DNA of 36,573 nucleotides from IMG/VR virus record IMGVR_UViG_2728369393_000013, one strand, 5' to 3'. The stretch comes from a virus (taxonomy: Duplodnaviria > Heunggongvirae > Uroviricota > Caudoviricetes). Position numbers and translations under genes: made by a program. How positions within the stretch are numbered: position 1 is the stretch's first letter; each line of letters begins with the position of its first letter. The notes under the pieces are model-generated. The model was given only the letters and a program-made list of their open reading frames with translations. It made no database searches and was not told where the DNA came from. This document shows positions 614-35,910 of this stretch, piece by piece.

Positions 614-1204
614 ATGTCTCGAATTTTTGCTTACTGTCGGATATCAACGCTGGATCAGACCACCGAAAATCAACGCCGGGAAATCGAAAGTGCAGGTTTT
701 AAAATCAAACCTCAGCAAATAATCGAAGAACACATTAGCGGCTCAGCAGCAACCAGTGAGCGTCCTGGTTTTAACCGGTTGCTTGCTCGCCTGAAATGTG
801 GTGATCAATTGATTGTGACAAAACTGGATCGCCTTGGTTGTAATGCAATGGATATCAGGAAAACAGTGGAACAACTGACCGAAACAGGTATCAGAGTGCA
901 TTGCTTAGCATTGGGGGGCATTGACCTGACCAGTCCAACAGGAAAAATGATGATGCAAGTAATTTCAGCAGTCGCTGAATTTGAACGAGACCTTTTACTT
1001 GAACGCACTCATTCCGGGATAGTAAGAGCCCGGGGCGCAGGGAAACGTTTTGGTCGACCACCTGTGTTAAATGAAGAACAGAAACAGGTGGTATTCGAAC
1101 GAATTAAGTCAGGTGTAAGTATAAGTGCCATTGCCCGGGAATTCAAAACCTCGCGGCAAACCATTTTAAGAGCCAAAGCAAAACTTCAGACACCTGACAT
1201 ATAA
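614..1204 (+). CDS. pin: Pin/Gin/Hin-family serine DNA invertase (196 aa)
   Basis: N-terminal [15 protein letters not shown] with catalytic-serine context typical of serine recombinases, C-terminal HTH; length matches PinQ/PinE/PinR; sits next to tail fibre assembly gene. Confidence 0.9.
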
Positions 1205-1759
1205 AAAATAATCTCGGTGTGAGATGCTTTACGTCTTCCAAGCCCCCTTCCTTGCCGTAAATGGAAAGATACATCTAATTATAGAATTTATATGTTTTAC
1301 CCTACGGCAGTGCTGGCCATTCAATATCCTGTGCAGTTGACGTATCAACACGGTTCAGCAATACCCGATACTTTTTCCATGCTTCCAGCAACGAGATTTC
1401 TTCCTCCGTTGCAATTTCCAGATCTGCAGCATCCTGAAGCGGCGCAATATGCTCACTGGCTACCTGCATCAGGTTGTTTTTTGTTTCTTCCGCCTCCCGG
1501 ATCCGGAACAGTTTTTCTGCTTCTGCATCTTTCACCCAGGCTGTGCCGTTCCACTTCTGAAACTCCCCTTCCGGCGATAACCAGGTAACATTTTCCGGTA
1601 ACGGACCGAGTTCAGAAATAAATAACGCGTCCCCTGACGCTACGTCATAAACCGTTTTACCCGATGGTCTTCAACGAGATGCCACGATGCCTCATTGAGG
1701 TAGCCTGAGTTTAACGGACACTCCTTCCTGAAATAGAATGGCATCAGAAGGAGCTAATA

Positions 1760-2062
1760 ATGAGCAGAAAAACCCAACGTTACTCTAAAGAGTTCAAAGC
1801 CGAAGCTGTCAGAACGGTTCTTGAAAATCAACTTTCGATCAGTGAAGGCGCTTCCCGATTATCTCTTCCTGAAGGCACTTTAGGACAATGGGTTACCGCC
1901 GCCAGAAAAGGGCTCGGTACTCCTGGTTCCCGCACGGTGGCTGAACTGGAATCTGAAATTCTGCAACTGCGTAAGGCGTTAAATGAAGCTCGCCTTGAGC
2001 GAGATATATTAAAAAAAGCAACAGCGTATTTTGCACAGGAGTCGCTGAAAAATACGCGTTAA
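1760..2062 (+). CDS. IS3-family transposase OrfA (HTH, leucine-zipper region), 100 aa
   Basis: MSRKTQRYSKEFKAEAVRTV... typical IS3 OrfA; ends just upstream of OrfB with slippery heptamer near 3' end. Confidence 0.85.
   Translation: MSRKTQRYSKEFKAEAVRTVLENQLSISEGASRLSLPEGTLGQWVTAARKGLGTPGSRTVAELESEILQLRKALNEARLERDILKKATAYFAQESLKNTR
2022..2028 (+). promoter_or_regulatory. Programmed -1 ribosomal frameshift slippery site AAAAAAG for OrfAB fusion transposase
   Basis: A AAA AAG motif in the orfA/orfB overlap region, the canonical IS3-family frameshift signal. Confidence 0.6.
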
Positions 2063-2097
2063 TCGAACAATGGCGACAACAATTTCCCATTGAAGCG

Positions 2098-2916
2098 ATG
2101 TGTCAGGTATTTGGTGTATCCAGGAGCGGTTATTACAACTGGGTACAGCATGAACCCTCAGACAGAAAACAAAGTGATGAGCGGCTAAAACTGGAGATTA
2201 AGGTGGCACATATCCGCACTCGCGAAACATATGGAACCCGGCGGCTCCAGACGGAGCTGGCAGAGAATGGCATCATCGTTGGTCGTGACCGACTGGCACG
2301 TCTTCGTAAGGAGCTAAGGCTACGCTGTAAGCAGAAACGCAAGTTCAGAGCGACTACGAACTCGAACCACAATCTGCCAGTTGCGCCAAATCTGCTGAAC
2401 CAGACGTTCGCTCCTACAGCACCAAATCAGGTCTGGGTGGCGGACCTGACGTATGTTGCCACACAGGAGGGATGGTTGTACCTCGCTGGCATCAAAGATG
2501 TTTATACGTGCGAAATTGTCGGCTACGCCATGGGAGAGCGCATGACAAAAGAGCTGACAGGTAAAGCCCTGTTTATGGCGCTCAGGAGCCAGCGCCCACC
2601 TGCCGGGCTAATCCACCACTCTGATCGAGGTTCACAGTACTGCGCATACGATTACCGGGTCATACAGGAGCAGTTTGGTCTGAAAACATCAATGTCGCGT
2701 AAAGGTAACTGTTACGACAACGCTCCGATGGAAAGCTTCTGGGGAACGCTGAAAAATGAGAGCCTGAGCCACTATCGTTTTAATAACCGGGATGAAGCCA
2801 TCTCAGTAATACGGGAATACATTGAGATTTTCTACAATCGTCAGCGTCGTCACTCTCGTCTGGGGAATATCTCCCCGGCAGCCTTCAGGGAAAAATATCA
2901 TCAGATGGCTGCTTAA
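2098..2916 (+). CDS. IS3-family transposase OrfB (DDE integrase core), 272 aa as annotated from first ATG
   Basis: Contains conserved integrase-core stretches ([32 protein letters not shown]); true product likely OrfAB via frameshift. Confidence 0.85.
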
Positions 2917-3142
2917 AAAAAGAACAAATGGTAGTGTCCGCTATTGCCAGTACACCTCACATCACTGTTGAAAACAGCCACAAAGCCAGCAGGAATATCT
3001 GGTGGTGCAATATCGGTACTGTTTGCTGGCAGACCTGTATGAGGCGGAATATATGCGTCACCTTCACCAATAAATTCATTAGTTCCGGCCAGCAGATTAT
3101 AAATTTTTATGGTCCGTGGTTGTTCACTCATTCTGAATGCCA

Positions 3143-3973
3143 TTATGCAAGCCTCACAATATAGTTAAATGCGATGTTTTTGACGGTGTTTTCCGTGTTA
3201 CCAGCAGCGTTAACGGTGATGGTGTGTCCATGTGAACCAATCGCAACGGAGTGCGTATGAGCACCAATACCGACAGTATGCGCGTGTGCACCTGCAGATG
3301 CTGCTGTGCCGGACAGTGAGTGGCTATGATTACCATCTGTACTGGTATTAGCTAACCACCCCGTAGACATACCTACTGAGCCTTGTACACCCCAGGTATT
3401 TTGACCTGAGCTTGTATAACCATATTGATAAGTATCTTTAAAAACACTGGGGTTAAATCGACGGCCATCTCTATGGCTGTGATTACCAGCTGCATTCGTG
3501 CTGCCACTTAAACTATGGGTATGCGCACCAGTGTTATTCGTGGATTTAGTGCCGTAATCAAACGACGATGTGGTTTTCGTCCCCAAATCCGTACTGGATG
3601 CGCTGGCGCTGTGGGTATGCGATTTAATGCCGTCCTGTTCCTGAGACAATACGGCCCGACCACTGGCAGGTTTGCCCTTAATCGTCCAGCCACGCATATC
3701 AGGGATCACGCCTGACGGATAAGCCGCTGCAAGTTTCGGGTAGGCAGATTTGTCAAAAGTCTGCCCCTGCATCAGGGCATAACCAGACGGAACGGTATCT
3801 GATGGCCACGGGATTGGTGCACCGACTGGATAAAACTCTGCAGGAGGATGAGCTGAGGTGTAAAGCTGCGCCCACGGCGACCAGTTTGCGTCGGTCGTAT
3901 CCCGTCGTGAACGAATAAATGCCGGAGCATGAGCACCGCTTGTATCCGGACGTGCTGACATCCTGTCCGGCAA
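3143..3973 (-). pseudogene. stf: Side tail fibre (stf) C-terminal receptor-binding remnant, 276 codons, lacking the N-terminal shaft
   Basis: Gly/Ser/Thr-rich sequence with repeated HxH motifs (GAHTHS, GNHSHR, GNHSHS, GAHAHT, GAHTHS, GSHGHT) typical of phage tail fibre tips; stop overlaps tfa start; upstream frame is the gene I remnant rather than stf N-terminus. Confidence 0.7.
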
Positions 3974-11730: not shown

Positions 11731-14321
<2,591 letters not shown>

Positions 14322-14347
<26 letters not shown>

Positions 14348-14670
14348 TCAGCAACCCCGGTATCAGTTCATCCAGTGCGGCTGCTTTGTTCATGGCTTTG
14401 ATGATATCCCGTTTCAGGAAATCAACATGTCGGTTTTCCAGTTCCGGAAAACGCCGCTGCACCGACAGGGGGATCCCGTCGAGAATACTGGCAATTTCAC
14501 CTGCGATCCGCGACAGCACGAAAGTACAGAATGCGGTTTCCACCACTTCAGCGGAGTCTCTGGCATTCTTCAGCTCCTGTGCGTCGGCCTGCGCACGCGT
14601 AAGTCGATGGCGTTCGTACTCAATAGTCCCTGGCTGGAGATCTGTCTCGCTGTCCTGCCTCAGTTCTTCA
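14322..14670 (-). pseudogene. Nu1: Terminase small subunit Nu1, C-terminal part, separated from its N-terminus by IS66-family insertion
   Basis: ...EELRQDSETDLQPGTIEYERHRLTRAQADAQELKNARD... continues the frame interrupted at 17203. Confidence 0.8.
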
Positions 14671-14755
14671 GTAAGCGTAAACTGACCGCCGTATGTAGCC
14701 ATCAGACGAGAATTGGTAACTTAGACGCCCATCTGATATAGACGGACATCTAAGT

Positions 14756-15181
14756 ATGGAATTACAGGACTGGCGAAAAGAACCTCGTAAAAACTATTCG
14801 AATGAATTCAAACTTCGTATGGTGGAACTGGCATCACAACCTGGAGCTTGTGTTGCACAGATTGCACGTGAAAATGGCGTCAATGATAATGTTATTTTCA
14901 AATGGCTCAGGCTCTGGCAGAACGAAGGGCGTGTTTCGCGGCGTCTTCCGGTAACGACCTCTTCTGACACTGGCGTTGAATTATTACCTGTAGAAATAAC
15001 GCCGGATGAGCAGAAAGAACCTGTGGCGGCCATTGCGCCGTCTTTATCCACTTCCACTCAGACCAGAGTCAGTGCCAGTTCCTGCAAGGTGGAATTCCGT
15101 CACGGTAACATGACGCTGGAAAATCCATCGCCAGAGCTGCTCACGGTGTTGATCCGTGAACTGACCGGGAGGGGAAGATGA
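14756..15181 (+). CDS. IS66-family accessory protein Orf1 (TnpA-like), 141 aa
   Basis: First ORF of IS66-type operon, overlaps next ORF by ATGA. Confidence 0.75.
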   Translation: MELQDWRKEPRKNYSNEFKLRMVELASQPGACVAQIARENGVNDNVIFKWLRLWQNEGRVSRRLPVTTSSDTGVELLPVEITPDEQKEPVAAIAPSLSTSTQTRVSASSCKVEFRHGNMTLENPSPELLTVLIRELTGRGR

Positions 15182-15528
15182 TCTCACTCCCATCAGGTAC
15201 CCGTATCTGGCTCGTTGCCGGCGTTACCGATATGCGTAAATCCTTCAACGGACTGGGAGAACAGGTACAACATGTGCTGAATGATAATCCCTTCTCCGGT
15301 CACCTGTTTATCTTCCGTGGCCGACGGGGTGACACCGTCAAAATTCTTTGGGCTGATGCTGATGGTCTGTGCCTGTTCACCAAACGCCTGGAGGAAGGCC
15401 AGTTTATCTGGCCTGCGGTACGTGACGGCAAGGTATCCATTACCCGCTCGCAACTGGCAATGCTCCTCGATAAGCTGGACTGGCGTCAGCCAAAAACATC
15501 CAGCCGTAACTCACTGACAATGTTGTAA
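15178..15528 (+). CDS. IS66-family Orf2 (TnpB-like), 116 aa
   Basis: Conserved IS66 Orf2 sequence (ISLPSGTRIWLVAGVTDMRKSFNGL...). Confidence 0.8.
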   Translation: MISLPSGTRIWLVAGVTDMRKSFNGLGEQVQHVLNDNPFSGHLFIFRGRRGDTVKILWADADGLCLFTKRLEEGQFIWPAVRDGKVSITRSQLAMLLDKLDWRQPKTSSRNSLTML

Positions 15529-15558
15529 AAAACTCCTGACCGCATTATAAAAACGGTC

Positions 15559-17172
15559 ATGAGTCAGAAATACCTCATTCGCATCGCAGAGCTGGAAAGA
15601 TTGCTCTCTGAGCAGGCTGAAGCCCTCCGTCAGAAAGACCAGCAACTGAGTCTGGTTGAAGAGACGGAAGCCTTCCTGCGCTCTGCACTGACACGTGCCG
15701 AAGAAAAGATCGAAGAAGATGAACGGGAAATAGAACATCTGCGGGCTCAGATAGAAAAACTGCGCCGGATGCTGTTCGGTACCCGTTCTGAAAAACTGCG
15801 TCGTGAAGTTGAACTGGCTGAGGCTCTGCTGAAACAACGTGAACAGGACAGCGATCGTTACAGTGGGCGGGAAGACGATCCTCAGGTTCCCCGCCAGTTG
15901 CGACAGTCGCGCCATCGTCGTCCGTTACCGGCACACCTTCCCCGAGAAATACACCGCCTGGAGCCAGAAGAAAGCTGTTGCCCGGAGTGTGGCGGTGAGC
16001 TGGATTATCTGGGGGAAGTCAGCGCTGAACAGCTGGAACTGGTGAGCAGTGCCCTGAAAGTGATCCGCACAGAACGGGTAAAAAAAGCCTGTACAAAATG
16101 TGACTGTATTGTTGAAGCACCGGCGCCGTCCCGCCCGATAGAGCGTGGTATCGCGGGCCCCGGATTACTTGCCCGCGTGTTAACGGGAAAATACTGCGAA
16201 CATCTGCCACTGTATCGTCAGAGTGAAATCTTTGCCCGCCAGGGTGTCGAACTGAGCCGGGCCTTACTCTCCAACTGGGTTGACGCGTGCTGCCAGTTAA
16301 TGACACCGGTGAATGATGCCCTGTACCGTTATGTAATGAACACCCGCAAGGTTCACACTGATGACACACCGGTAAAGGTACTGGCACCGGGTCAGAAAAA
16401 GGCGAAAACAGGGCGTATCTGGACGTATGTCCGGGATGATCGCAATGTGGGTTCGTCATCTCCTCCAGCGGTCTGGTTCGCGTACTCGCCGAACCGGCAG
16501 GGGAAACACCCGGAGCAACACCTCCGCCCCTTCCGGGGTATCCTGCAGGCGGATGCGTTCACAGGTTACGACAGGTTGTTCAGTGCAGAACGTGAAGGTG
16601 GTGCACTGACAGAAGTTGCGTGCTGGGCCCATGCCCGGCGAAAAATCCACGATGTATACATCAGCAGCAAAAGTGCGACGGCAGAAGAAGCCCTGAAGCG
16701 AATCAGTGAACTGTACGCCATCGAGGATGAAATACGGGGATTACCGGAGTCAGAGCGTCTTGCCGTCAGGCAGCAGCGAAGCAAAGTGTTACTGACGTCG
16801 CTGCATGAATGGATGGTGGAGAAGAATGGTACGCTGTCGAAAAAATCCAGACTGGGCGAAGCGTTCAGCTATGTACTGAATCAGTGGGATGCCCTCTGTT
16901 ATTACAGTGATGACGGTCTGGCGGAGGCGGATAATAATGCTGCGGAAAGAGCGCTTCGTGCAGTCTGTCTCGGAAAGAAAAAGTTTATGTTCTTTGGCAG
17001 CGATCACGGCGGCGAGCGTGGAGCACTGTTGTACGGGCTGATCGGCACCTGCCGTCTGAACGGTATCGATCCGGAAGCGTATCTGCGCCATATCCTGAGC
17101 GTACTGCCGGAATGGCCTTCCAACCGAGTTGATGAACTCCTGCCATGGAACGTAGTACTCACCAATAAATAA
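15559..17172 (+). CDS. IS66-family transposase Orf3 (TnpC), 537 aa
   Basis: N-terminal coiled coil, CxxC...CxxC zinc motif (CPECGG...CTKCDC), DDE-type core; stop 30 bp before right IR. Confidence 0.85.
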   Translation: MSQKYLIRIAELERLLSEQAEALRQKDQQLSLVEETEAFLRSALTRAEEKIEEDEREIEHLRAQIEKLRRMLFGTRSEKLRREVELAEALLKQREQDSDRYSGREDDPQVPRQLRQSRHRRPLPAHLPREIHRLEPEESCCPECGGELDYLGEVSAEQLELVSSALKVIRTERVKKACTKCDCIVEAPAPSRPIERGIAGPGLLARVLTGKYCEHLPLYRQSEIFARQGVELSRALLSNWVDACCQLMTPVNDALYRYVMNTRKVHTDDTPVKVLAPGQKKAKTGRIWTYVRDDRNVGSSSPPAVWFAYSPNRQGKHPEQHLRPFRGILQADAFTGYDRLFSAEREGGALTEVACWAHARRKIHDVYISSKSATAEEALKRISELYAIEDEIRGLPESERLAVRQQRSKVLLTSLHEWMVEKNGTLSKKSRLGEAFSYVLNQWDALCYYSDDGLAEADNNAAERALRAVCLGKKKFMFFGSDHGGERGALLYGLIGTCRLNGIDPEAYLRHILSVLPEWPSNRVDELLPWNVVLTNK

Positions 17173-19390: not shown

Positions 19391-19590
19391 TTCACTTTCT
19401 TAAATCTAACGACAGACGGCTAACATTTAAGTATTGTGAAATATTATCAAATGCAATCATCATTGATTTACAAAAGATACATTTTGCCCCGAAAGGATTC
19501 CTGTCAGAAACATCAAAAGATGATGTTCTATACTGAGAACCATGGCAACACGGGCATCTAAAGTGAATATGGTTTGTAATATTTTCTACC

Positions 19591-19803
19591 TCAAAGTGCC
19601 ACAACATGAACAGCCGCGGGGCCTTTAGGTCCGTTCTCAATACCAAATTCGACTTCCTGATTCTCAGTTAACGTTTTGAAATCGTTGCTCTGAATAGCTG
19701 AGAAATGGACAAACACATCTTTGCTACCATCTTTCGGCGTGATGAAACCAAAACCTTTTTCAGGGTTAAACCATTTCACTAAACCAGTCATTTTGTTAGA
19801 CAT
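19591..19803 (-). CDS. cspI: Cold shock protein, CspA family (70 aa)
   Basis: [38 protein letters not shown]... canonical CSD with RNP motifs. Confidence 0.9.
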
Positions 19804-20166
19804 CATTATTACCTTTTGAAGAAGTTAGCCCTTGGGCAGAATGGTCCGAAAAAAAATATCAGAGAGAAAAACCAACAAGGAAATCTCAAGAGGTACAAAT
19901 AATAAAATTATAACAATGACTGCTTCAGATAATTTTGTAACAAACCAGAACACCATTAACGCATGATTAACCAACCATAGCAAGGATTACTTTTGTAAAG
20001 AAAAACACACGAATGAAACAATAGCTTTATTTATTAATAAAACGTGTCATTCTGTCTAATGACCTTTTATCTTACCCTTAAGATTTCAAGGATTTTGACT
20101 CATGGAAGAGTCCTTTTTATTTAAATTTCACATTCAGCGCTAAAAATAATCCGATTTAATATTAAT

Positions 20167-21194
<1,028 letters not shown>

Positions 21195-22760: not shown

Positions 22761-23039
22761 TATTGTGGTGCTTTTTGTGGGAGTCATCCACTTACGCACT
22801 TTGTTTTGCTATGCTAGCAGTTAGCTTCTGCTGTAAAACTATTCATGCAGCAAACCTGCACTTCACCACAATGGTTAGCATACTTTTCCTGATTAAGTTA
22901 TTGCCAAATATGCTGGCCATTGTTTCATGTATTGGATCTCCTTACTATTTATTAAAGAGATCCAATATTCACCACTCTGTCTGTATCTCCACTCAGGCAT
23001 CAGCCTTCTTCGTTATCGTATACAGACAAACTATTAATT

Positions 23040-23255
23040 TTAATCAGTAATTATGACATTTGCTGCTGCAGGACCTTTAGCACCACTCTCTACAGAGAAG
23101 GTAACCTTTTGACCTTCAAATAAGGTTCGAAAATTATCATTCTGAATCGCAGAAAAATGCACAAACACATCTTTACTACCATCAACAGGAGAAATAAAGC
23201 CAAAACCTTTATCAGCGTTAAACCATTTTACTAAACCAGTCATTTTATTTGACAT
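23040..23255 (-). CDS. cspB: Cold shock protein CspB-like (71 aa)
   Basis: [53 protein letters not shown]... Confidence 0.9.
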
Positions 23256-23555
23256 TCTACATTCCTTAACTTGAGCCTTTCGGCATAAATGGCTTGTATA
23301 ACAGAAACGACTTCGTACTTAATTGGAGAGACTCAAAGAAGGAATAAGTGAATAACACCTGAAATGAGAACTGCTTTAGTAAACTACTTCGTATATCGTC
23401 TGTTCTTCAAACCGACGCAATCATTAACGCATAGTTGAACATATGAAGCAATGTTTATTTTAGACATCCAGCCATCTTCAACCCCATCAAAAAACTATAG
23501 CTTTCTTCAGGAACGTGTGTATAGTGCGCCAAGTTATCAGTATTAAGGAATTTTT

Positions 23556-31090: not shown

Positions 31091-31919
31091 GACGATGCCC
31101 TCCGCTGATATTCAGGAAACGGTGAATATGAAGATTAGCCTTATCCGCCAGACGAATACGTTCAGCCTGCAAGTTAAGAAGGGTTTCTACCAGAACCTGA
31201 TGCGCCTGCGGATCCGAAAGAGTTACCTTGCGCAGAGCACGTAGTGCAGTTGTTACATAGCTGAGTTTATGTAAGTCTTCATCATTCAGACGAGTGAGGG
31301 CTGGGACAGTAGCCATGATGGCAGCCTCCGTATGCAATGGATAACTTCCACCACCGGAAACGCCAATTTCGCTGGTGGTGAACTGAGCAGGGTTGGCGTA
31401 ACCGGCGCATACGGAAACCGGCGCACCTTTCGGTGCCCCCACCCAGCCCACCATAATTTGGGTATAGCTGAGTTGTAGCAACAAAAAAGACGCTAACGCG
31501 CCAATTGTCGCCGTATGCAATTCCAGGACGCCAATCCCGGCACCCGCTTTATAAGGTGCCTGAACAGTGTAACGTCCCGGAATGGCAGAATCAATGTGCT
31601 GGTGGTCCTTCACACTCAACAAAATCACGCCTGAATTTCCACAAAGGGCTAAAGCACTCATGCGGGTAGTCTTTGCGAAGATAGATAACGCGCTGTGTTT
31701 CTGGCTCCCAACGAATAACATGAACATAAAGTCCTCTTCCGTCACGAAACCAGCGGTTAAGTTCCTGCACAACTCGCCCCCCACAGTCAGGTAAAGTTCT
31801 CTGTGGTTACTTACAGCCAGGAGATTTGGTAATCTGCATTCATGCCGTAACAACAGGTGTTCAGCGACGCTGACCACCAGCTGTTGCGACAAACGGTTAT
31901 TTGCCGTTAAACTGTTCAT
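31083..31919 (-). CDS. Hypothetical protein (278 aa) in replication module
   Basis: Long ORF in operon orientation; no motif recognised by eye (no Walker A). Confidence 0.45.
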   Translation of the reverse strand: MNSLTANNRLSQQLVVSVAEHLLLRHECRLPNLLAVSNHRELYLTVGGELCRNLTAGFVTEEDFMFMLFVGSQKHSALSIFAKTTRMSALALCGNSGVILLSVKDHQHIDSAIPGRYTVQAPYKAGAGIGVLELHTATIGALASFLLLQLSYTQIMVGWVGAPKGAPVSVCAGYANPAQFTTSEIGVSGGGSYPLHTEAAIMATVPALTRLNDEDLHKLSYVTTALRALRKVTLSDPQAHQVLVETLLNLQAERIRLADKANLHIHRFLNISGGHRHA

Positions 31920-32508: not shown

Positions 32509-32709
32509 TTAATCTTTCGGATAGATATCCGGTCTTAAGTCAGATTTCGTAATTGCACCTGACGTGCATTGCTCAAGTTTTTTAGCCAGCACAAAACTGG
32601 CTTTTTTATAACCATTGAAAACCAGCCGTAAGTAGCCTGGTGTTGAGCCAACTTTTCCGGCCAACTCGCCCTGCTGTTCTTTGGTTAAAGAGTCCCAATA
32701 CGCTTTCAT
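32509..32709 (-). CDS. Cro/YdaS-like HTH protein (66 aa)
   Basis: MKAYWDSLTKEQQGELAGKVGSTPGYLRLVFNGYKKASFVLAKKLEQ has HTH; GGAGG SD 8 nt upstream; divergent from cI. Confidence 0.6.
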   Translation of the reverse strand: MKAYWDSLTKEQQGELAGKVGSTPGYLRLVFNGYKKASFVLAKKLEQCTSGAITKSDLRPDIYPKD

Positions 32710-32799
32710 ACAATATGTACCTCCGGTATACATATTACATGATTGAGATGAATCTTCAAGATACTTGTACCTTATCGGTACAAAGGTTTTAATTTCTTT
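32710..32799. promoter_or_regulatory. Divergent cI/cro promoter-operator region with perfect palindrome TTGTACC-TTATC-GGTACAA (32765-32783)
   Basis: Palindrome seen directly; TTGAAG-16-TAATAT on minus strand toward cro; TTGTAC-18-TTTAAT on plus strand ending at cI ATG. Confidence 0.55.
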
Positions 32800-33474
32800 A
32801 TGAAAACAGTCCATGACATCCGGCGGTCTAACGCCAGAAAACTGAGAGATGGTGTTGGCGGGAATTCTTCCTTTGCCACCATGATTGATCGCGAGCCAAC
32901 CCAGACCAGCAGGTTTATGGGAGATGGTGCTACTAAAAATATCGGTGACAGCATGGCACGACACATCGAAAAATGTTTCGACCTGCCTGTCGGATGGCTC
33001 GATCAAGAACACCAGACAACGAACATCACAAAAAAACCTGATGTTTCAATCACTAATAAACAAATCACATTAGTCCCTGTCATATCATGGGTACAGGCCG
33101 GAGCATGGAAAGAAGTTGGATATTCTGAGGTTGATTTGAGCACAGCAGAAACGTATCCCTGCCCTGTACCCTGTGGGGAAATGACTTATATCTTGCGGGT
33201 GATAGGTGATTCAATGATTGATGAGTACCGCCCGGGAGACATGATTTTTGTCGATCCTGAAGTACCTGCCTGCCACGGTGACGACGTTATTGCATTGATG
33301 CACGATACAGGTGAAACCACCTTCAAAAGGTTGATAGAAGATGGGACACAGCGTTATCTCAAAGCGTTAAACCCAAACTGGCCTGAGCCTTACATTAAGA
33401 TCAACGGTAATTGCTCTATAATTGGTACTGTGATTTTCTCAGGAAAACCAAGAAGATACAAAATCAAAGCCTAA
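32800..33474 (+). CDS. CI-type repressor with C-terminal S24 (LexA-like) autopeptidase domain (224 aa)
   Basis: C-terminal GDSM (Ser nucleophile) and downstream Lys; architecture like P22 C2/lambda CI. Confidence 0.8.
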   Translation: MKTVHDIRRSNARKLRDGVGGNSSFATMIDREPTQTSRFMGDGATKNIGDSMARHIEKCFDLPVGWLDQEHQTTNITKKPDVSITNKQITLVPVISWVQAGAWKEVGYSEVDLSTAETYPCPVPCGEMTYILRVIGDSMIDEYRPGDMIFVDPEVPACHGDDVIALMHDTGETTFKRLIEDGTQRYLKALNPNWPEPYIKINGNCSIIGTVIFSGKPRRYKIKA

Positions 33475-33488
33475 TCAATGTTTATGAA

Positions 33489-33510
33489 CCTGCTTCGGCA
33501 GGTTTTTTTA
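33489..33510 (+). terminator. Rho-independent terminator after cI
   Basis: CCTGCTTCGGCAGG hairpin followed by T7. Confidence 0.75.
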
Positions 33511-33513
33511 TAC

Positions 33514-33542
33514 TTGACAGTGTACCTTTGAGATACATAATG
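33514..33542 (+). promoter_or_regulatory. Candidate sigma70 promoter (TTGACA-16-CATAAT) immediately after cI terminator
   Basis: Near-consensus -35 and -10 hexamers seen directly; overlaps TGTACC operator-like motifs. Confidence 0.45.
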
Positions 33543-33624
33543 TACCCAAGAGAAACAACAAACAGGCAGGACGCCCACGAAGTAGCCGCCTGGGGCATAT
33601 GAAGTCCAGGATGATTCGTTAGCA

Positions 33625-33650
33625 ACAAAAAAGCGCCCTATAGGACGCTT
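33625..33650 (-). terminator. Rho-independent terminator (minus strand) for DUF1311-like gene
   Basis: On minus strand AGCGTCC-TATA-GGGCGCT hairpin (one mismatch) followed by T6. Confidence 0.5.
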
Positions 33651-33676
33651 CGCTCTTTAACAATCTGGATGACTTA

Positions 33677-34189
33677 TTACTCAGATTTGAACTTTGGTTC
33701 TGGCAAAAGAGGAGGAGTTGAGTCCTCGAATCGTAGCCAGTGCTCCCAGATATCGTGGGATTGTAATTCCAGAAGACCAATTTGACGTGATGCAACTGCA
33801 GTGCCAGCTATAGTTCCTCCTGCATAATCAACCTGGACGGACTTTGACGCTTTCTCAATTAATTCTGTCCAAGCTTCACTTTCCGCGTTAAAAGAAGCAG
33901 TTAATTCCTGCAGACGCTGTGGATCATCCTTGTTGTCTTGTTTCAAACGATTCAGGGCGGCCACCGAATACTTATTCTTAACCCAACTAACCTGAGCTAA
34001 CTGAACTCTCTGACAAGCGTCCATATCAGTAGTTGTTTCCTGAGGCATATCAAAGCAGGAAATAAAAAAAGTCTCAACACCATCATTTAGACTACTGCTC
34101 GGCTGGTTCAAAGCATCAGAAGCATTGGATGCTATCGGTATTATCAGTGCTACCGACAGAATCAAACGTTTAACATAAATCGCTCCCAT
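33677..34189 (-). CDS. Secreted DUF1311 (LprI lysozyme-inhibitor-like) protein, 170 aa, moron between cI and pL
   Basis: N-terminal signal peptide (KRLILSVALIIPIASNA); C-terminal EAWTELIEKASKSVQVDYAGGTIAGTAVASRQIGLLELQSHDIWE matches DUF1311 pattern as recalled; SD GAGGGG before ATG. Confidence 0.5.
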   Translation of the reverse strand: MGAIYVKRLILSVALIIPIASNASDALNQPSSSLNDGVETFFISCFDMPQETTTDMDACQRVQLAQVSWVKNKYSVAALNRLKQDNKDDPQRLQELTASFNAESEAWTELIEKASKSVQVDYAGGTIAGTAVASRQIGLLELQSHDIWEHWLRFEDSTPPLLPEPKFKSE

Positions 34190-34477
34190 TTAATTATCCC
34201 CTCTAAGAACAGAGTCATCCAGATTAGCCGAATCCTTGTTGTTGGGGAATAACCAGGCCCACCTCGCCTGATGTGGCTAAAAGCAGGCACATAACAGCTA
34301 AGTATTTTCAACCAGAGAGAATCCTTAGCGTTGTGGTGAATGCGGCTCAGCGCACGCGGGTTAAGGTTGAGGCTGACAGTCGACCTTCTGTGGATACCCA
34401 CCCGCCTGGTGTGCAACCTTCGCCAGGCACCGGGAGGCACCCGGCACCACAACTTTATGCTGTGTGTAGTCCTGGCG

Positions 34478-34511
34478 GTACCAGTTTGTACCCTTGCTTC
34501 CGGCTGGTACC
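34478..34511. promoter_or_regulatory. Putative OL/pL operator region with three GTACC-core motifs
   Basis: GGTACC (34478-34483), TTGTACC (34486-34492), GGTACC (34506-34511) resemble half-sites of the OR palindrome. Confidence 0.4.
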
Positions 34512-34608
34512 GCTCTTTTTACAAAACAGAGAAGAGCATCACCGGACGACGGGCTCATAACCCAATCCATCCGGGCGGCTGCCACCGCAGGTGTTCTTCT
34601 CTGTTTTG
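34512..34608 (+). other. Structured leader element: boxA-like CGCTCTTTTTA followed by long imperfect stem-loop (arms 34522-34536 and 34594-34608)
   Basis: Inverted repeat CAAAACAGAGAAGAG / TTCTTCTCTGTTTTG (14 of 15 bp complementary) enclosing 57 nt with internal GC-rich pairing. Confidence 0.4.
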
Positions 34609-34657
34609 TGGAGAAACCAACCGACCTTGCAGGGTCGATATGATTAGGAGTAGCAAA

Positions 34658-35020
34658 ATGGCTAGCGAACGCAGTACCAACGTGCAGGAATTTATCGTAG
34701 AACTGGACGGCGGCGTATTTGAAACCAAACTCGGCGCAGTTCTCAGCGAAGTCGCTTCCGGTGTGATGAACACGAAAAACAAAGGTAAAGTCTCGGTCAA
34801 TCTGGACATCGAACCGTTTGATGAGAACCGTGTGAAAATCAAACACAAACTCTCATATGTTCGCCCGACTAACCGCGGGAAAATTTCCGAAGAAGACACC
34901 ACCGAAACGCCGATGTATGTCAATCGCGGTGGTCGCCTGACTATTCTGCAGGAAGACCAGGGACAGTTACTGACTCTTGCCGGTGAACCTGACGGAAAAC
35001 TCCGCGCAGCAGGTCGTTAA
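34658..35020 (+). CDS. Hypothetical early protein (120 aa), first gene of leftward operon
   Basis: AGGAG SD 7 nt upstream of ATG at 34658; longer listed ORF is an upstream extension across the leader. Confidence 0.55.
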   Translation: MASERSTNVQEFIVELDGGVFETKLGAVLSEVASGVMNTKNKGKVSVNLDIEPFDENRVKIKHKLSYVRPTNRGKISEEDTTETPMYVNRGGRLTILQEDQGQLLTLAGEPDGKLRAAGR

Positions 35021-35085: not shown

Positions 35086-35910
35086 ATGTCTCAGAACTTA
35101 GACGCAACCGCAATTAATCAAATCCATGCTCTTATTTCTGCTCAGGGTGTTAATGAAATTATCAGTAAGATTGGTGCCGATGCCGTGGCATTGCCTGAGA
35201 ATTTCCGCATTCATGATCTGGAAAAATTTAATTTAAATCGCTTCCGTTTCCGTGGTGCGCTTTCCACTGCCAGCATTGATGACTTTACCCGTTATTCTAA
35301 AGATCTTGCAGATGAAGGCACCCGCTGCTTTATCGATGCCGATAATATGCGAGCCGTCAGTGTGCTTAACCTGGGTACTATTGATGAACCAGGTCACGCA
35401 GATAACACCGCCACTCTCAAACTGAAAAAGACAGCACCGTTCTCTGCCCTGTTGTCTGTTAACGGCGAGCGTAACTCCCAGAAGTCACTGGCAGAATGGA
35501 TTGAAGACTGGGCCGACTACCTTGTGGGCTTTGATGCTAATGGTGACGCCATTCAGGCAACAAAAGCGGCTGCGGCAGTCCGTAAAATCACGATTGAAGC
35601 AAACCAGACCGCTGATTTTGAAGATAGTGACTTCAGCGGCAAACGCTCCCTGATGGAATCTGTCGAAGCGAAGACCAAAGACATTATGCCAGTGGCATTT
35701 GAATTTAAATGCGTTCCGTTTGAAGGCCTGAAAGAACGTCCGTTTAAATTACGCCTCAGCATTATCACTGGCGATCGTCCTGTACTGGTTCTGCGCATTA
35801 TTCAGCTGGAAGCAGTGCAGGAAGAAATGGCTAACGAATTTCGTGATCTGCTTGTTGAGAAATTCAAAGACAGCAAAGTAGAAACCTTTATTGGTACTTT
35901 TACCGCCTGA
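35086..35910 (+). CDS. yfdQ: YfdQ-like (DUF2303) prophage protein, 274 aa
   Basis: Length and gene order match CPS-53 yfdQ-yfdR pair; assignment from memory. Confidence 0.5.

Follow-up and report, generated by a model that had tools for sequence, protein, structure and literature searches.

ORF170, a predicted periplasmic DUF1311/LprI-fold protein in a probable exchange slot of an e14/CPS-53-like lambdoid prophage

The ORF170 gene and its predicted product

The window considered here is a stretch of 36,573 nucleotides from a virus of the Caudoviricetes (IMG/VR record IMGVR_UViG_2728369393_000013), and the gene of interest is an open reading frame (ORF) on its minus strand, at 33677–34189, which we call ORF170. 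It begins with ATG and encodes a 170-residue precursor that is predicted to be a secreted protein of the DUF1311/LprI fold. The reading frame is exactly the one given by an initial annotation made from the sequence alone, which also credited the gene with its own Shine–Dalgarno sequence; GAGGGG (34198–34203, minus strand) is indeed found 8 nt before the ATG, within the exchanged segment described below. In identical or near-identical Escherichia coli prophages, the coding sequence is labeled 'hypothetical protein' by the NCBI Prokaryotic Genome Annotation Pipeline (PGAP; WP_000500990.1), and a search for literature on this protein under accession WP_000500990 found none. In PHROGs, it is assigned to phrog_7681, a family of unknown function.

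ORF170 is carried by 146 of 5,426 complete E. coli genomes, and each copy is chromosomal and at least 99% identical. A 1.3-kb segment spanning the gene is 100% identical to E. coli CFSAN004176 and 99.6% identical to UTI89, S88, IHE3034, NU14, and several avian pathogenic E. coli (APEC) strains. Its neighbors in the E. coli genomes are ymfL–ymfT (cro)–ymfK (cI) on one side and yfdP–yfdQ–yfdR on the other. The closest copies outside E. coli occupy the same position in prophages of Escherichia albertii (65% amino acid identity) and Klebsiella variicola (71%), and the ratio of nonsynonymous to synonymous substitution rates (dN/dS) against these homologs is 0.21 and 0.11, respectively. Ratios of this size indicate purifying selection and speak against a chance ORF; ORF170 thus appears to be a genuine gene that is maintained by selection. 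The initial annotation had made its reading depend on the presence of the gene in related prophages, and the gene is found in the 146 E. coli genomes and in the two prophages from other species.

The proposed signal peptide is also upheld. Residues 1–23 (nt 34189–34121) comprise an n-region MGAIYVKR with the basic residues K7 and R8, an h-region LILSVALIIPIA with a mean Kyte–Doolittle hydropathy of 2.8, and a cleavage motif, SNA followed by SD after the cut, with small residues at −3 and −1; a lipobox is absent. In the alignment this pattern is kept in all homologs of ORF170, though the residues differ, and in the AlphaFold2 model the segment has a low predicted local distance difference test score (pLDDT). 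Judged by these sequence features, the N-terminus is a typical Sec signal peptide. The precursor would be exported through Sec and cut after Ala23, and residues 24–170 would form a soluble periplasmic protein of ~147 residues.

The initial annotation further described a C-terminal region resembling DUF1311. Profiles and the structural model uphold the resemblance, but the domain spans residues ~45–141, most of the mature protein, and the direct Pfam match is sub-threshold. A Pfam scan of ORF170 returns a weak match to LprI/DUF1311 alone (PF07007; 17.3 bits, E = 0.006, residues 50–137), short of the gathering threshold of 22 bits; MliC, Ivy, and PliG domains were not found. The relatives P0023 (33.6 bits), P0024 (23.6 bits), and P0025 (24.3 bits) clear the threshold, intermediates beyond them reach 45–60 bits, and a protein 42% identical to ORF170 (P0174) is named 'LprI family' by NCBI. 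A word-indexed search with ORF170 recovers a narrow enterobacterial clade and one true DUF1311 protein. When the profile was built from this clade plus that one true DUF1311 sequence—a composition with which the counts should be read—an exhaustive search found 498 proteins at E ≤ 0.001, including 253 at E ≤ 1e-10. A word-indexed search with the same profile found 221, and nearly all of those listed outside the close clade carry PF07007. A profile of 62 sequences (alignment A2) matches PDB 3gi7, a solved DUF1311 protein, with E = 1e-4; the narrow clade profile alone returned only noise from the PDB sequences, and a search of the BFVD viral structures returned nothing significant. By profile-based, transitive homology, ORF170 is placed within the DUF1311/LprI family.

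An AlphaFold2 model of ORF170 based on the 62-sequence alignment is confident (pLDDT 89.3, predicted template modeling score 0.80) and places a beta-hairpin at residues 31–43, helices at 53–85, 90–121, and 128–152, and a C-terminal strand at 164–169; its helices match the three-helix bundle of 3gi7. The 3gi7 protein, PP0307 of Pseudomonas putida, is like ORF170 a small, secreted, helical DUF1311/LprI (PF07007) protein. ORF170 retains the first cysteine pair and the GGT motif of the family, but differs from the family model in its additional N-terminal beta-hairpin, its C-terminal tail, and the loss of the second cysteine pair. The family is described as having four conserved cysteines in two disulfides (PMC7933661); ORF170 has only C45 and C59, and throughout the enterobacterial clade the second pair is replaced by K/S and S/R-type residues. 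The tail carries the invariant motif DSTPPLLPEP (residues 156–165; ~33692–33724 in the window), which is common to a large DUF1311 subfamily of many Proteobacteria (alignments A1 and A2). Neither the Pfam LprI model nor any NCBIfam family covers this subfamily signature; in the AlphaFold2 model, it runs into the strand that pairs with the N-terminal hairpin. We are highly confident in the combined prediction of an exported protein with the three-helix DUF1311/LprI fold, the N-terminal hairpin, and the DSTPPLLPEP strand.

Position beyond the likely PL and an rrn-type boxA

ORF170 is convergent with the repressor gene ymfK (cI type, LexA/S24 family; 32800–33474, plus strand; Pfam Peptidase_S24, 1.5e-26), as the initial annotation stated. 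On the far side of cI are the OR region (32710–32799) and the cro-like ymfT (32509–32709, minus strand). OR contains two palindromes of the form TGTACC-N5-GGTACA, at 32716–32732 (two mismatches) and 32766–32782 (perfect). Beyond the cI terminator (33486–33505), the top sigma70 match of the region between cI and ORF170 is a plus-strand promoter, TTGACA-16-CATAAT (33514–33541; 11/12), with two operator-like sites lying across it, TGTACCTTTGAGATACA (33521–33537) and TGTACCCAAGAGAAACA (33541–33557), that resemble those of OR. At zero to one mismatch, the operator pattern is confined in the whole window to the cro–cI interval and this promoter, and 33514–33557 is likely PL/OL.

A boxA, CGCTCTTTAACAA (33651–33663, plus strand), follows the likely PL by about 85 nt and is the sole exact match in the window. 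Together with the T at 33664, it shares 13 of 14 positions with its counterpart in the E. coli rrnH leader, TGCTCTTTAACAAT, which is likewise preceded by a hairpin; the order at this locus is that of rrn leaders, hairpin then boxA. The hairpin (33630–33651) is bidirectional: on the minus strand, its 9-bp GC-rich stem and T-run form the terminator of ORF170, and on the plus strand it is boxB-like and precedes boxA. The same arrangement recurs in IMG/VR, among 114 listed contigs that contain the 17-mer spanning the boxA junction together with 300 nt upstream. Within that distance, 83 have a promoter of at least 9/12 on the boxA strand, as against 14 with one on the opposite strand, and the most frequent distance is 100–119 nt upstream (42 of the 83). 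The boxA is constant among these contigs, and the sequence of the preceding hairpin is variable. A second boxA downstream of cro (nutR) was sought at up to two mismatches, and none was found. A structured, put-like PL leader RNA was considered and rejected, as the predicted fold of 33548–33670 is no better than those of shuffled sequences (z = −0.14).

From the presumed PL start at ~33548 to yfdP (34658–35020), about 1.1 kb contains no sense ORF; this leader is made up of the antisense cargo and an RNA similar to STnc100/PasD. With yfdQ/DUF2303 (35086–35910), yfdP belongs to the plus-strand early-left genes on the right side of the conserved backbone. An rrn-type, anti-Rho boxA would make sense at the head of so long an untranslated leader, and ORF170 likely lies inside the early-left unit, just after a nutL-like site and antisense to the likely PL.

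The RNA element between ORF170 and yfdP (34300–34522, plus strand) matches the Rfam STnc100 prophage small RNA at 46.5 bits (gathering threshold 47; E = 1.5e-8), and a 2026 preprint relates the STnc100 family to PasD. A pseudogene called by PGAP as a 'frameshifted hypothetical protein' (34333–34643) overlaps this element and may be a mis-called RNA gene.

The initial annotation had placed ORF170 in the rexAB position. In lambda, rexAB lies between cI and OL/PL and is co-transcribed with cI. ORF170 is the first gene past cI, as would be expected of an immunity-operon gene like rexAB under joint control with cI; however, it runs on the other strand, and the cI terminator, the operator-bearing promoter at 33514–33557, and the hairpin and boxA at 33630–33663 stand between the two genes. 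Because a promoter with operator-like sites and a boxA intervene, the rexAB position is rejected, and we give a rexAB-like identity almost no credence. A looser likeness is retained. Like lambda rexAB and BTP1 bstA, ORF170 is an accessory gene beside the repressor that varies among otherwise similar phages; unlike them, it does not lie on the cI strand downstream of cI and share the cI promoter, but is convergent with cI, past PL/OL and boxA, and antisense to the early-left transcript. Lambdoid phages are known to gather lysogen-expressed accessory and defense genes in the interval between cI and N (PMC8585504), a hotspot that is also mosaic (Degnan et al., 2007, cited through PMC8585504). ORF170 in this sense joins two known kinds, the DUF1311 family and the cargo of the cI–N hotspot.

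An exchange slot bounded by an inverted repeat

A single backbone, ymfL–ymfT–ymfK to yfdP–yfdQ–yfdR, carries ORF170 in some genomes and five other fillings or none in others. A query made of the joined flanks matches 2,816 E. coli genomes, of which 146 have ORF170; five example genomes were read for their fillings. TW11681 carries an unrelated 171-aa coiled-coil/CxxC protein, strain 1428 an ECs1072-family protein with a small ORF, 20KM0223N a 91-aa ORF, and the e14 element of K-12 ymfJ/ymfI. Nothing is recognizable in C41, an 'empty' variant with a different, unrelated spacer. The junctions are sharp, with the left flank ending ...CGCTCTTTAACAATCTGG(AT) and the right flank starting ATCCAGATTA(A/G)CCGAATCC.... 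This presence and absence among near-identical backbones, with sharp boundaries, supports the description of ORF170 as a moron, or accessory gene, in the initial annotation.

The cargo is bracketed by an inverted repeat with the core AATCTGG...CCAGATT. In the window, the left arm AATCTGGATGACT (33662–33674) lies at the junction where the conserved flank ends ...AACAATCTGG(AT), and the right arm AGTCATCCAGATT (34213–34225) lies where the conserved right flank begins ATCCAGATTA; these arms of the ORF170 cargo pair at 13 of 13 positions. The arms around the TW11681 cargo (AATCTGGATATCCCCAACA and TGTTGTGGATATCCAGATT) pair at 18 of 19, the repeat in strain 1428 takes a bulged form, and an IMG/VR cargo (L074) has a mirrored change in both arms. 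The 17-mer at the boxA junction, GCTCTTTAACAATCTGG, is found in at least 120 IMG/VR contigs and is directly followed by at least 62 distinct sequences. Among the matches listed, ~30 of 53 distinct cargos end 350–830 nt further on, at the junction between (GTTGGGG)ATATCCAGATT and AACCGAATCC; the longest ORF runs against PL in 17 of the 18 listed cargos for which both junctions are present. The kinds of cargo listed (loci L018–L137) include coiled-coil plus CxxC, ECs1072-like, two-transmembrane-segment, and DUF1311-like families, and scans of representative cargos gave no match in Pfam and none in PADLOC.

On these observations, ORF170 is probably one of the interchangeable cargos that occupy a hypervariable slot in an e14/CPS-53-like lambdoid prophage; the slot comes directly after PL/OL and an rrn-type hairpin and boxA, and the cargo is oriented against PL. 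The anatomy of the slot is visible in the sequence, and from it we infer the identity of the promoter as PL. The exchanged ORF170 segment consists of the Shine–Dalgarno sequence and the ORF, with only ~25 nt before the ATG. The hairpin and T-run that follow the gene (33651–33630) do form a terminator, as initially claimed, but one that sits in the conserved left flank common to unrelated cargos and is not part of the cargo. A promoter for ORF170, if there is any, would likewise belong to the conserved right flank, which is common to unrelated cargos. No promoter or terminator was found within the inserted unit itself, and the claim that it is an independent moron is not supported; ORF170 appears to borrow its expression signals from the slot.

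The inverted repeat could be a dedicated site of cassette exchange. Alternatively, its arms could pair in RNA, as a stem that either closes off the cargo mRNA or holds the antisense cargo in a loop outside the PL transcript and its anti-Rho protection. Two further candidates were rejected. Inversion of the cassette is unsupported, because 142 of the 144 genomes with full-length ORF170 keep the order and orientation of the window at both junctions. An empty palindromic site, sought in IMG/VR as boxA-AATCTGG followed by CCAGATTA within 30 nt, gave zero matches.

It is possible, though we hold the view only tentatively, that a large group of lambdoid phages uses this slot as an exchange site, just 3′ of the hairpin and boxA and delimited by AATCTGG(ATATCCCCAAC) ... 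(GTTGGGGATAT)CCAGATT, with expression in lysogeny only and a built-in shut-off. The slot would serve dozens of unrelated single-gene cargos, nearly all of them antisense to PL, and ORF170 would be its periplasmic DUF1311 form. In a search that was not exhaustive, we found no published description of such a boxA-adjacent, antisense, repeat-bracketed slot. A mosaic cI–N hotspot was already known; the architecture of the slot is the more unusual result, more so than the gene itself. Its more general value lies in a precisely bounded and widely shared location, downstream of PL and boxA, that holds many uncharacterized single genes set against PL, and that offers a list of candidate lysogeny-expressed functions together with a testable model of their switching off at induction.

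Comparison of the prophages suggests how the cargo may have arrived. The K. variicola prophage (L007, 5560–5760) has a different repressor (HTH_3+S24), and, by eye, palindromes of the form ACAGT...ACTGT surround a promoter TTGACG-18-TATTAT in the equivalent place; its leader, boxA, slot, and DUF1311-like cargo are placed as in the E. coli window. The repressor differs, yet the slot and cargo match, so that the immunity module and the cargo slot appear to be separate mosaic units. Homologs with 42–66% identity are stand-alone chromosomal genes with ordinary neighbors, in Raoultella, Pantoea, and an enterobacterium (L012). The Raoultella and L012 genes still show a portion of the 5′ leader (AATCTGnAnGnC), but not a recognizable 3′ arm. 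The simplest reading is that a phage captured a periplasmic gene from a bacterium.

A recent capture from a Klebsiella/Raoultella-type chromosome could also mean that ORF170 is a passenger, spreading with its prophage and without a current function in E. coli. The near-identity of the 146 E. coli copies is compatible with recent spread, the nearest non-phage homologs are in Klebsiella-group genomes, and no promoter for the gene was detected. However, dN/dS is 0.11–0.21 among prophage-borne copies from three genera, all of those copies retain an intact ORF, signal peptide, and motif, and the position in the slot is the same in E. coli, E. albertii, and Klebsiella prophages. We consider a passenger role quite unlikely.

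Regulation and possible function

The anatomy of the slot suggests a simple regulatory scheme. In the lysogen, cI would shut PL, and the cargo would be transcribed unopposed from a putative promoter in the conserved right flank; upon induction, polymerase modified at boxA would run from PL antisense through the cargo and silence it. Whether ORF170 is on in the lysogen and off at induction is, in our estimate, an even question.

The initial annotation named superinfection exclusion, lysozyme inhibition, or another host benefit as candidate functions, and all of these stay candidates. The proposal made here for the function of ORF170 comes from the recurrence of DUF1311 proteins as periplasmic immunity proteins that counter cell-wall-degrading effectors of type VI secretion systems (T6SS). 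Such proteins have been predicted as T6SS immunity proteins in Pantoea and beside WHIX effectors, and Etsi4 of enterohemorrhagic E. coli was shown to rescue cells from Etse4. Like ORF170 as predicted here, Etsi4 has a signal peptide, is periplasmic, forms a small helical bundle, and scores below threshold against Pfam LprI (18.7 bits); by this analogy, ORF170 would neutralize a cell-wall enzyme that acts in the periplasm. It may bind and block a peptidoglycan hydrolase that enters the periplasm from outside, such as the T6SS muramidase of a rival, the tail lysozyme of a superinfecting phage, or host lysozyme. Blocking the incoming hydrolase would benefit the lysogen, and shut-off by PL would also spare the GH24 phage lysozyme that serves as the endolysin of the prophage (20661–21194) from interference. 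The specific role as a periplasmic neutralizer of incoming peptidoglycan hydrolases, drawn by analogy, is possible but doubtful. For the explanation as a whole—export, slot, regulation, and hydrolase binding—which we regard as the best available, we estimate a probability of roughly 45%.

Several observations weigh against this explanation. ORF170 differs from Etsi4 in having no adjacent effector and in lying outside any T6SS island, and Etsi4 lacks the DSTPPLLPEP tail. A special kinship between the two was considered and rejected, the hhalign probability being only 25%, which indicates a remote relationship. The neighbors of ORF170 are phage immunity and early genes and do not provide the context of an effector/immunity island; no effector gene adjoins ORF170 or its chromosomal relatives in the neighborhoods examined. 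Nor does guilt by association help for the wider DUF1311 subfamily, as its neighbors across genera (Vibrio, Dyella, Raoultella, Pantoea, and L012) are unrelated to one another. A similarity of ORF170 to TsiV3 sits among many generic matches to helical bundles, and the second disulfide of the family is lost in the ORF170 clade. PADLOC and NCBIfam scans of ORF170 gave zero matches, and its PHROG family is one of unknown function; a known defense or exclusion system is thus not indicated. The other slot cargos look cytoplasmic or membrane-bound, so the slot gives no specific indication of a periplasmic function. Consensus and permissive scans of the 500 nt upstream found no usable minus-strand sigma70-like promoter for ORF170, and expression in lysogens is therefore assumed. 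The name 'lysozyme inhibitor' is also a weak guide and is unproven for the domain itself: in LprI of Mycobacterium tuberculosis, it was the MliC domain that proved sufficient for lysozyme inhibition and resistance, and ScwA of Salmonella, a periplasmic LprI-domain protein, does not confer lysozyme resistance (PMC7933661).

ScwA (SL1344_0490) also introduces the main rival, in which ORF170 is a modulator of envelope homeostasis in the manner of ScwA or UmoC, acting on the peptidoglycan enzymes or envelope signaling of the cell itself. Like ORF170, ScwA belongs to an enterobacterium, has a low GC content and an LprI domain, and was acquired horizontally; it is periplasmic, as ORF170 is predicted to be, is disulfide-bonded, shows that an LprI domain need not inhibit lysozyme, and alters the levels of endogenous hydrolases, among them MltD, Slt, and AmiC (PMC7933661). 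The stand-alone chromosomal homologs in Raoultella, Pantoea, and L012, which have no toxin or phage neighbors, suggest a housekeeping-type periplasmic role that was captured by a phage, and one DUF1311 relative (P0029) weakly matches the NCBIfam UmoC model (35.7 bits). The envelope-modulator reading fits these chromosomal homologs better than the preferred explanation does. ORF170 itself has no UmoC match, however, and ScwA is a protein of 275 aa with a long and different N-terminal region and four cysteines in two disulfides, and is not prophage-borne, whereas ORF170 has 170 aa and one cysteine pair. It is also hard to see what motive a prophage would have for keeping such a role at ≥99% identity in 146 genomes. 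A modulator of this kind is, in our view, unlikely for ORF170.

A second rival is dedicated superinfection exclusion, in which ORF170 would act in the periplasm to keep out the DNA of other phages, much as T4 Spackle or P1 Sim do, and independently of T6SS or host lysozyme. T4 Spackle is a periplasmic inhibitor of the tail lysozyme gp5. Small, helical, and made by a phage, it acts in the periplasm on a lysozyme that arrives from outside; it offers a possible functional analogy to ORF170, and purely an analogy, as the searches run detected no relationship in sequence or fold. Lambdoid prophages do keep exclusion and abortive-infection genes beside the immunity region, the ORF170 protein is predicted to be periplasmic, and silencing of a lysozyme binder by PL would suit a prophage with a GH24 endolysin of its own. 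Against dedicated exclusion stand the existence of chromosomal, non-prophage homologs and the absence of any tblastn match to ORF170 among 50,697 deposited phage genomes. We consider it improbable.

With ORF170, the accessory genes found beside the repressor in prophages of extraintestinal pathogenic E. coli (UTI89, CFT073, S88, IHE3034, and APEC strains) would come to include one for a periplasmic factor of the DUF1311 fold. If ORF170 does neutralize a cell-wall hydrolase, it could be understood as an 'orphan immunity' that a phage carries and that protects against attack by bacteria or phages.

Other features of the window

Several further elements were recorded in the window. A C4 antisense RNA (31371–31458, minus strand; Rfam 80.7 bits) adjoins an IsrK Hfq-binding RNA (31483–31559, minus strand; Rfam 61.2 bits), both above threshold; their location beside an 'ash family' gene region suggests a P1/P7-type, c4-like secondary immunity or anti-repressor module. 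Two cspA-type thermoregulator 5′ leaders (19545–19961 and 22977–23416, minus strand; 109.8 and 159.4 bits) mark two genes similar to those for cold-shock proteins, which flank the lysis genes in the late region.

An IS66-family insertion sequence (IS) element, with ORFs at 14756–15181, 15178–15528, and 15559–17172 (DDE_Tnp_IS66, 1e-96), is located immediately upstream of the gene for the terminase large subunit (12423–14168) in the region 12423–17172. The match to the ATPase domain of the terminase begins at profile position 19; the terminase may be truncated, and the prophage defective. Near the left end of the window are a serine recombinase/invertase (614–1204; Resolvase+HTH_7), an IS009 RNA (1336–1534; 221 bits), an IS3-type transposase (2098–2916), and a tail-fiber gene with a collar domain (3143–3973). 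The region 614–3973 is possibly a Pin-like invertible tail-fiber region that has been disrupted by an IS.

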